From Escherichia coli (lineage in GTDB: Bacteria; Pseudomonadota; Gammaproteobacteria; Enterobacterales; Enterobacteriaceae): 64,000 bases of DNA. A program made the translations under genes and the position numbers. This document shows, piece by piece, positions 28,335 through 30,734 of the stretch (position 1 is its first letter; each line of letters begins with the position of its first letter). A model generated the notes under the pieces. That model searched no databases, was not told the DNA's origin, and saw only the letters and a program-made list of their open reading frames with translations. Location: assembly GCF_048403405.1 (NCBI RefSeq), contig NZ_CP183129.1. One strand, written 5' to 3'.

Positions 28335-28438
28335 ACGTTCCTCCTTTATATGAACTCACCGGAGCAGGCTCCGGTGAGGTGTTGTGAACTTAAGTCTGGA
28401 CGAAATGCCCGAAAACGAAAGTTTGAGGCGTAAAAAGC

Positions 28439-29602
28439 TTAGCGGGCGGCTTCGTATATACGGCGGCTGACATCCAGCGTAATGTCATGATTTTCGCCCA
28501 GTTGGGTCATACCGTGCTCTTCCAGTTTTTTCAACAAAGCCGGGATGGAGCTGCCGTCCAGACCGTAGTCGGAGAGGTGGGTCGGCACGCCTAATTGCTC
28601 AAAGAAATTGCGGGTTGCGGCAATCGCGGCGTCAATACGCTCATCGTCGGAACCTTCTGTGATGTTCCAGACGCGTTCAGCATATTGCAGCAGCTTAGCG
28701 CGCTTGGTATCGCGTTTTTCATTCCACAGTGCAGGCAGGACGATAGCCAGTGTTTGTGCGTGATCCAGACCGTGCATCGCAGTCAGTTCGTGGCCTAGCA
28801 TATGCGTTGCCCAGTCCTGCGGTACGCCAGCGCCAATCAAACCGTTCAGCGCCTGAGTCGCCGCCCACATAACGTTGGCGCGCACATCGTAGTTTTCTGG
28901 CTCTTTCAGGGCTTTCGGACCATCTTCGATCAGCGTCAACAAAATGCCTTCTGCGAAACGGTCCTGAATTTTGGCATCAACCGGTTTGGTAACATACTGT
29001 TCCACGGTGTGCACAAAGGCATCCACTACACCGTTAGCCACCTGACGCGGCGGCAGAGTGTAGGTATAAACCGGATCGAGCACGGCAAATACGGGTTGAA
29101 CATGGGCAGAATGGAATGCCTGCTTGTCGCCTGTGGTTTTACGGGAGATCACCGCGCCTGCGTTGGATTCTGAACCGGTTGCTGGCAGCGTCAGCACACA
29201 GCCCATCGGGATGGCGCTTTTAATTTCTTTACCGCCCGTTTGTAGAATGTGCCACGGATCGATATTTTCCGGATAATTAGCCGCTGCGGCGATAAATTTG
29301 GTGCCGTCCAGTACAGAACCGCCGCCAACCGCCAGCAGGAAAGTCACTTTTTGTTCGCGAACCAGTTTCACGGCGTTCATCAGCGTTTCATAAGCCGGGT
29401 TTGGCTCAATACCGCCAAATTCCAGCACGTCCATGCCTTTCAGGGCATCCAGAACTTGATCGAGAACGCCGGTTTTTTTCACGCTGCCGCCGCCGTAGGT
29501 AATCAATACGCGAGCATCGTGAGGAATTTGTTCGCGTAAACCAGCGATTGCGCCTTTACCAAAAAGAATGCGGGTTGGGGTGTGCAGATTAAAGTTGTTC
29601 AT
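28439..29602 (-). CDS. yqhD: NADPH-dependent aldehyde reductase YqhD (iron-containing alcohol dehydrogenase family)
   Basis: Start set at MNNFNLHTP, giving 387 aa; the tracked ORF carries 8 extra N-terminal codons. Confidence 0.93.
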
Positions 29603-29738
29603 TACTTGCTCCCTTTGCTGGGTCAATATGAGGGCAGAGAACGATCTGCCTGATGTTTTTCATTGTGATCGCCAGCGCCCTGGCTCTCAATGCTCATTTC
29701 TGCCAATGTCTTGCCTATTTCTCCAGAGTGCTGGAGAA

Positions 29739-30695
29739 ATGCTACAAAATTGCGCACAATCAAATTGCCGCATTATTCCTAAGAAATTACGCGATATGAA
29801 ACGTGAAGAGATTTGCCGCTTGCTGGCGGATAAAGTTAATACACTGAAAAATAAAGAAAATGGTTTGTCAGAGCTGTTGCCCGATGTGCGTTTGTTGTAT
29901 GGCGAGACGCCTTTCGCACGTACACCGGTAATGTACGAGCCTGGCATCATAATTCTCTTTTCCGGGCATAAAATCGGTTATATCAATGAACGCGTGTTTC
30001 GTTATGATGCCAATGAATACCTGCTGCTGACGGTGCCGTTGCCGTTTGAGTGCGAAACCTATGCCACGTCAGAGGTGCCGCTGGCAGGGTTGCGTCTCAA
30101 TGTCGATATTTTGCAGTTACAGGAACTGTTGATGGACATTGGCGAAGATGAGCATTTCCAGCCGTCGATGGCAGCCAGCGGGATTAACTCTGCCACGTTA
30201 TCAGAAGAGATTTTATGCGCGGCGGAGCGGTTACTCGACGTGATGGAGCGACCGCTGGATGCGCGTATTCTCGGCAAACAGATCATCCGCGAAATTCTGT
30301 ACTACGTGCTGACCGGACCTTGCGGCGGTGCGTTACTGGCGCTGGTCAGTCGCCAGACTCACTTCAGCCTGATTAGCCGCGTGCTGAAACGGATTGAGAA
30401 TAAATACACCGAAAACCTGAGCGTCGAGCAACTGGCGGCAGAAGCCAACATGAGCGTATCGGCGTTCCACCATAATTTTAAGTCTGTCACTAGCACCTCG
30501 CCGTTGCAGTATTTGAAGAATTACCGTCTGCATAAGGCGCGGATGATGATCATCCACGACGGCATGAAAGCCAGCGCGGCGGCGATGCGCGTCGGCTATG
30601 AAAGCGCATCGCAATTTAGCCGTGAGTTTAAACGTTACTTCGGTGTGACGCCGGGGGAAGATGCGGCAAGAATGCGGGCGATGCAGGGGAATTAA
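29739..30695 (+). CDS. yqhC: AraC-family transcriptional activator YqhC
   Basis: Start set at the ATG at 29739 with a GGAG ribosome-binding site, giving 318 aa; C-terminal AraC-type helix-turn-helix; divergent from yqhD. Confidence 0.9.
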
Positions 30696-30734
30696 ATACG
30701 TTCCCGGTACAGCAACCGGGAACGGGGAAAATCG

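Follow-up and report, generated by a model that had tools for sequence, protein, structure and literature searches.

Frazao et al. 2018 (PMC6115493) and PMC10991953 name a 24-bp palindrome upstream of yqhD as a putative site of YqhC binding. PMC10991953, citing Lee et al. 2010, speaks in the statement concerned of "a 24-bp palindrome consisting of two 10-bp repeating units" and presents it as a predicted YqhC binding sequence. As far as the original description (Lee et al. 2010, J Bacteriol 192:4205) is relayed by PMC6115493 and PMC10991953, it refers to the same sequence as treated here, with the 10-bp units 4 bp apart, and places it upstream of the yqhD promoter and adjoining a SoxS-like box. 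This is the same location as positions 29717-29740 of our window, by which we mean the whole stretch of 64,000 nucleotides that was analysed. The element itself shows no difference from the published one; the reading as an RNA structure was added by a first-pass annotation made from the sequence. The palindrome at 29717-29740 is an already known element, and the finding is ordinary and nothing new in kind. What this analysis adds are comparative data, a probable role of the right arm as a -35 element, and evidence against ATG 29739 as the start codon of yqhC.

Two further groups of described systems are close to this locus. With divergent regulator/target regions of the araC-araBAD type it shares the back-to-back genes, the putative regulator sites between and overlapping the promoters, and the apparent autoregulation. 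AraC-family sites are usually asymmetric boxes of 17-20 bp, often arranged as direct repeats about 21 bp apart, and not tight palindromes. Judged against this architecture, an ATTTCT direct repeat with 21-bp spacing and a GGCAA-type box are present, and the tight 10-4-10 palindrome of this putative site is atypical for the AraC family and unlike a classical AraC or MarA/SoxS site. The two ATTTCT copies (29696-29701 and 29717-29722) are two helical turns apart and resemble AraC half-sites, a likeness drawn from general knowledge of the family; a third copy lies inverted in the right arm of the palindrome. The second group are hairpins in 5' UTRs that sequester the ribosome-binding site (RBS), i.e., ROSE and fourU thermometers and translational operators. 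Here, the likeness consists in a stable hairpin in E. coli that comprises GGAG and AUG, whereas the AUG is not a conserved start, neither covariation nor an Rfam match was found, and the hairpin probably lies outside the main transcript.

The whole window is E. coli DNA, 100% identical to strain U1, and present in 5412 of 5426 complete genomes. A spacer of 135 bp (29604-29738) separates yqhD from the first in-frame ATG of the MG1655 model of yqhC (Table 1). In this spacer, the first-pass annotation had described an inverted repeat with perfect 6-bp arms and 4 nt between them, CTCCAGAGTGCTGGAG, which ends 2 nt before the presumed yqhC start and contains its GGAG Shine-Dalgarno (SD) sequence. 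The repeat is indeed perfect, GGAG occupies 29733-29736, and the distance to ATG 29739 is 2 nt. The observation is real but understated: complementarity runs 4 bp further on each side, and only the inner 16 bp had been seen. Inverted repeats of 6 bp with a 4-nt loop occur 23 times in the window, compared to 17.5 +/- 3.5 in dinucleotide shuffles, a number that chance can account for. The 10-bp version does exceed chance, with 0.33 such repeats expected in the window for all loops of 3-8 nt.

Table 1. Coordinates of the features discussed, in window positions except for the distant homologues, which are given by locus.
Feature	Position	Strand	Remark
yqhD CDS	28439..29603	-	divergent gene activated by YqhC; ATG at 29603
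yqhD -10 CACAAT	29662..29667	-	invariant
yqhD -35 TTGAGA	29690-29685	-	invariant
Near-invariant block CTCTCAATGCTCATTTCTGCCAATGTCTTGCC	29684..29715	.	includes the yqhD -35 and the probable YqhC ('SoxS-like') box
Full perfect palindrome ATTTCTCCAG-AGTG-CTGGAGAAAT	29717..29740	.	10-bp arms, 4-nt spacer, in E. coli
Left conserved arm TTTCTCCA	29718..29725	.	runs on from the invariant block on its left side
6-bp repeat of the first-pass annotation, CTCCAG-AGTG-CTGGAG	29721..29736	.	inner part of the larger palindrome
Right arm CTGGAGAA	29731..29738	.	identical in 80/80 orthologous loci
TGGAGA, putative yqhC -35	29732..29737	+	4/6 match to TTGACA; invariant in 80/80; inside the right arm
ATG 29739	29739..29741	+	MG1655-annotated yqhC start (318 aa); not conserved outside Escherichia
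CACAAT, putative yqhC -10	29755..29760	+	C1, A2 and T6 invariant in 80/80; 17 bp from TGGAGA
yqhC CDS, conserved start	29796..30695	+	299 aa, AraC_N and HTH_18 domains
(G)GAnT(A/G)GGCAA box regions in distant homologues	L083 880-960; L084 2360-2420; L085 590-620; L086 625-700; L087 1010-1075; L088 150-200		upstream of the adjacent gene

The remaining inverted repeats of 10-bp length in the window are mostly terminator-like. One further perfect 10-bp inverted repeat is found at 28355-28378 between yqhD and dkgA (CTCACCGGAG-N4-CTCCGGTGAG), just 5' of the dkgA SD sequence, and another at 30699-30724, directly after the yqhC stop codon and between yqhC and the convergent yghB, without a clear T-run. 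Two common explanations for a palindrome were rejected for 29717-29740. A REP-like repeated element is discarded as the window has only one copy of the palindrome and each genome likewise one. An intrinsic terminator is discarded as the terminator scan lists nothing at this position; the base of the stem is A+T-rich and is followed by GCTACAAAA, in place of a G+C-rich stem with a T-run.

Conservation was assessed in a comparison set of 80 orthologous Enterobacteriaceae loci with 80-97% protein identity. When the alignment is anchored on CTGGAGAA, all columns from 29662 to 29760 are ungapped in the 80 loci, and thus the yqhD -10 and -35 elements, the invariant block, the palindrome and a CAnnnT motif to its right stand at fixed mutual distances; in 78 of 80 loci, the distance from the anchor to the conserved yqhC ATG downstream of it is 65 nt. 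In the left arm, T29718, T29719, C29721 and T29722 are invariant and TTTCT nearly so. At 29723, 56 loci have C and 24 have A, the latter giving an A.G mismatch, and G is found at 29726 in only 48 of 80. The centre of the palindrome (about 4-8 nt, including 29726-29730) varies freely. Within E. coli, 4531 of 5412 genomes are identical over 29708-29747. The palindrome co-occurs strictly with yqhC-yqhD. As a side observation, the dyad reaches past the palindrome: complementarity between TGC (29701-29703) and GCA (29754-29756), located +/-26-28 bp off the centre, holds in 86-100% of the 80 loci, and the right-hand GCA overlaps the putative yqhC -10.

With its conserved arms, variable centre, fixed distances to the promoters and listing in the literature, the palindrome bears out, as far as comparison of sequences can, the earlier proposal of a DNA operator in the divergent region. 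We assign a probability of roughly three in four to the reading that it acts in cis, at the DNA level, on the back-to-back promoters of yqhD and yqhC, being the published 24-bp palindrome and most likely an operator. The opposite view would be that the symmetry arose by chance and has no function of its own, the arms being conserved for unrelated reasons: the distal arm may be kept only for its -35 element, and the proximal arm for no more than its share in the YqhC box, and distant homologues (see below) are without the palindrome. Against this stand the improbability of a perfect 10-bp symmetry at the expectation given above, a 7-N8-7 form that is exact at the same position in 42 of 80 loci, and complementarity of pairs 4-11 from the centre in 70-100% of loci, such that we regard a chance palindrome as extremely unlikely.

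The reading as an RBS-sequestering hairpin depends on ATG 29739, the start of the 318-aa model, being the yqhC start. This model is the MG1655 annotation (NC_000913.3), while RefSeq/PGAP starts yqhC at ATG 29796 (299 aa), and in 12 of 12 listed E. coli genomes no CDS is annotated under 29708-29747. Position 29739 holds an ATG in only 9 of the 80 loci and lacks it in the other 71, and an in-frame stop interrupts the 19 extension codons in 61; the downstream ATG (Met-Asn/Lys-Arg) is universal. One lineage of Escherichia itself (L002) has ATA at the upstream position together with an in-frame TGA. Column entropy by codon position is flat over 29739-29795 (1.22/1.25/1.40), and shows the signature of coding sequence in the next 19 codons (0.50/0.48/1.18); no codon periodicity is thus seen in the extension within the alignment of orthologous loci. 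Because of these stops and the missing periodicity, 29796 is favoured over 29739, and the start codon presumed in the first-pass annotation is a contested one. ATG 29739 is, judging from the alignment, not an ancestral or conserved yqhC start, with some use in E. coli being possible, and the 318-aa start of MG1655 is very probably a mis-annotation or at best Escherichia-specific.

Several observations concern the situation in E. coli itself. The upstream ATG is nearly fixed within the species. The 318-aa YqhC is functional when expressed from synthetic RBSs (PMC6115493), and a GFP fusion placed exactly at ATG 29739 gave a signal (PMC8262776); given this signal, some transcripts may include the palindrome. 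A GGAG-type SD sequence is located 5-16 nt 5' of the conserved ATG in 51 of 79 loci, and E. coli has almost none before ATG 29796 (duplex -1.3 kcal/mol). In the stretch 29776-29795, Escherichia has lost the GGAG found in these 51 other Enterobacteriaceae loci. In several Raoultella loci (L029, L030, L035), the SD region reads CTGGAGAA, i.e., the same 8-mer as the right arm of the palindrome. The usual gap between SD and ATG is 5-10 nt, and the 2 nt between GGAG and ATG 29739 are much shorter. In E. coli UID2309220041 (L090), a 1-nt deletion at the equivalent of window position 29744 (ATGCT-CAAAA) shifts the 318-aa frame, and the gene is still annotated as intact with 299 aa; the deletion is a singleton among 5412 genomes, may be a sequencing error and carries little weight.

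A candidate promoter for the 299-aa gene overlaps the palindrome. The hexamer at 29755 reads CACAAT in 38 loci, CACACT in 28, CACTAT in 6 and otherwise in 8, and we read this CAnnnT motif as a -10 element because invariant A2 and T6 positions mark such an element. Together with TGGAGA in the right arm it matches the consensus at 8 of 12 positions, too few for the cut-off of the consensus scan, which hence does not list the pair. From these data we infer that TGGAGA-17-CACAAT is the yqhC promoter, with a predicted transcription start site (TSS) near 29767 and a leader of about 29 nt to ATG 29796. With a TSS at this place, the palindrome and ATG 29739 would both stay outside the transcript from this promoter, which suggests that the main yqhC transcript lacks the palindrome. 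A search of the literature, including the supplements of Kim 2012 and Ettwiller 2016, did not yield a yqhC TSS.

The putative yqhC -35 and the yqhD -35 hexamers are 41 bp apart, back to back. The yqhD promoter was found independently by the consensus promoter scan. Its TSS is the C at 29655, placed there by the hexamers and the initiating 'C' that PMC6115493 quotes from Lee 2010, and the palindrome spans -62 to -85 relative to it. The left arm forms the distal edge of the activator box (GGAGAAATAGGCAA on the yqhD strand). In Reg-Seq data, whose arbitrary zero is at 29695 (44 bp upstream of ATG 29739) and whose mutated window covers 29580-29740, the mutation-sensitive, expression-promoting stretch is consistently 29695-29715, in coincidence with the invariant block. 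Nothing was flagged over the palindrome, in a table that lists no feature beyond +29 and thus effectively stops short of the right arm; the Reg-Seq construct is without the CACAAT hexamer. A SoxS/MarA marbox, fitted by eye to the invariant block, gave no convincing register.

As RNA, the 24-mer folds with -12.5 kcal/mol (z -5.2) and the 16-mer alone with -7.7 kcal/mol. Across the orthologues the hairpin energy ranges from -2.9 to -15.3 kcal/mol, with a median of -9.2. Covariation was tested on the 80-sequence alignment (54 distinct sequences) against 500 shuffles. With the palindrome taken as a helix, 82.8% of cells are paired compared to 82.5% after shuffling, and the covariation score of 0.029 (shuffled: 0.027) was reached by 94 of the 500 shuffles. 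Uncompensated breaks occur at pairs 2, 4, 7, 9 and 10; pair 7 is broken in 11 and pair 10 in 28 of the 54 distinct sequences, none of them compensated. A two-sided change is seen at the outermost pair only, which is itself unpaired in 40 of the 54. In E. coli strain A30, the left arm has a T>C exchange without compensation. With the breaks uncompensated and the pairing no better than in shuffles, the pattern indicates that the sequence of each arm is selected, not the pairing. A search of Rfam 15 over window positions 29400-30000 with E-values up to 1 gave 0 matches.

In the hairpin reading of the first-pass annotation, the stem would pair GGAG and the AU of AUG 29739 and thereby throttle translation of the 318-aa YqhC. 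The stability of the 24-nt stem in E. coli, its inclusion of GGAG and ATG, the annotated start in MG1655, the retention of ATG 29739 in essentially all E. coli genomes (with the identity over 29708-29747 given above), the missing good SD before 29796 in Escherichia, the functional 318-aa form and the signal of the GFP fusion speak in its favour. It is contradicted by the non-conserved ATG with stops in most loci and in lineage L002, the extension without codon periodicity, the lack of covariation and of an Rfam match, the short gap between GGAG and ATG, and the conserved -35/-10-like pair, which would place the TSS 3' of the hairpin. The comparative data leave this reading unsupported, and we hold it to be very unlikely. 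A related possibility is that an upstream promoter gives rise to a minor, longer yqhC transcript, near whose 5' end the palindrome would fold into a stem-loop that acts on mRNA stability or elongation and not on the RBS. Hairpin potential in nearly all orthologues, at the median energy given above, and rightward expression from reporters without the CACAAT hexamer (Reg-Seq; the GFP fusion of PMC8262776) are compatible with such a transcript. The pairing is, however, no better than column composition predicts, a conserved rightward -10 element (A2/T6) upstream of the palindrome is not present, and the junctions of the reporters create artificial sequence, such that promoters there may be artefacts; this explanation appears quite improbable.

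Published binding data, at the level of fragments, point to YqhC in the spacer. In EMSA, YqhC shifts a probe that spans 29604-29749 according to its primers (PMC8262776), and gSELEX gave a single YqhC peak, located in the yqhC-yqhD spacer (PMC8249747). A reporter with native DNA only from 29669 rightwards (primer CF324) was induced 70-fold by aldehyde and YqhC (PMC6115493), so the responsive element lies within 29669-29888, which includes the invariant block and the palindrome. Moreover, yqhC appears to be positively autoregulated (PMC8262776; DARSI preprint). The strongest YqhC ChIP-exo interval, U00096.2 3153318-3153348 (PMC8464067 supplement), is discordant: it maps to 29632-29662, i.e., to the initial transcribed region of yqhD and off the palindrome. 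The reporter that misses the 29632-29662 stretch is still inducible by YqhC and aldehyde (PMC6115493). An inverted repeat, GGGCAGA-N6-TCTGCCT, in the yqhD 5' leader coincides with the ChIP-exo interval. An intragenic antisense sigma-54 ChIP-seq site in yqhC, pointing toward yqhD, has been reported at U00096.2 3152925, at about window position 30055 (PMC4591121).

Six distant homologues of the YqhC family with 46-57% identity were located on contigs (L083-L088). Their upstream regions have a box (G)GAnT(A/G)GGCAA in common, e.g., GCAGGATTAGGCAAGACATCGGCAGGAAT in L088 compared to GGAGAAATAGGCAAGACATTGGCAGAAAT in E. coli, and this box is a candidate family-wide operator motif. The palindrome is absent in all six loci. 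In L083, GCATTGA is retained as well, and CACAAT follows some 20 nt later, ahead of the Fe-ADH gene, which in this locus is co-directional with the regulator and not divergent. As the box is shared with the distant homologues and the palindrome is not, the left arm would be the distal edge of a family-wide box, and the right arm and the dyad symmetry would be a trait of the divergent arrangement in Enterobacteriaceae. The mutation of Lee and colleagues that abolishes binding reportedly falls in the SoxS-like box and need not affect the palindrome.

The palindrome could also be the operator of a dimeric regulator other than YqhC, e.g., one that mediates the reported effects of CRP or GlaR on yqhC/yqhD. 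Tight symmetric repeats go more typically with dimeric helix-turn-helix repressors than with AraC-family proteins, CRP-dependent repression has been mentioned (PMC5297802), regulation by GlaR has been reported with the site not given (PMC7567609), and the YqhC ChIP-exo interval lies off the palindrome. By inspection, however, the arms are unlike the CRP consensus, the left arm directly adjoins the YqhC-family box GGAnnAT(A/G)GGCAA common to the distant homologues, the element occurs strictly together with yqhC-yqhD, and gSELEX puts YqhC on the spacer. A different regulator is therefore unlikely, and YqhC is most likely the protein that binds the palindrome.

Under the preferred reading of the palindrome as a DNA operator, YqhC, or less likely another dimeric factor, would activate yqhD when bound to the invariant block and the palindrome. 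The left arm would form the distal edge of a YqhC-responsive activator box that reaches the yqhD -35, and the right arm CTGGAGAA would hold TGGAGA as the yqhC -35. Since the right arm presumably carries this -35, the same bound protein would also tune yqhC: at the palindrome it would both help to activate yqhD and modulate yqhC transcription, i.e., act in autoregulation. Translation of yqhC would begin at ATG 29796, with the palindrome about 56 nt upstream and probably outside the main yqhC mRNA. What is seen directly is the sequence, its pattern of conservation, the constant spacing and the lack of conservation of ATG 29739, while which protein binds, what the symmetry does and where the yqhC promoter lies are inferred. 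A more elaborate combination is conceivable, in which a YqhC dimer on both arms covers the yqhC -35, touches the upstream box of yqhD and couples aldehyde-induced yqhD activation to yqhC autoregulation, while an Escherichia-only minor longer transcript with the hairpin and a lineage-specific upstream AUG yields a hairpin-limited 318-aa isoform beside the 299-aa protein. Such a bifunctional switch is speculative and rather improbable.

The impact of the operator reading is limited, as the element is already part of the literature on the YqhC/YqhD switch of aldehyde detoxification. This switch is used in aldehyde biosensors and matters for tolerance to furfural, glyoxal and glutaraldehyde. A practical by-product is that the yqhC start is probably ATG 29796 (299 aa) and the promoter, which would overlap the palindrome, probably TGGAGA-17-CACAAT. 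Several constructs in the literature have ATG 29739 as their fusion point or start of expression, and the reassignment of the start bears on their design; more generally, the assignment of promoter and start affects the design of expression constructs, reporters and windows of the Reg-Seq type.
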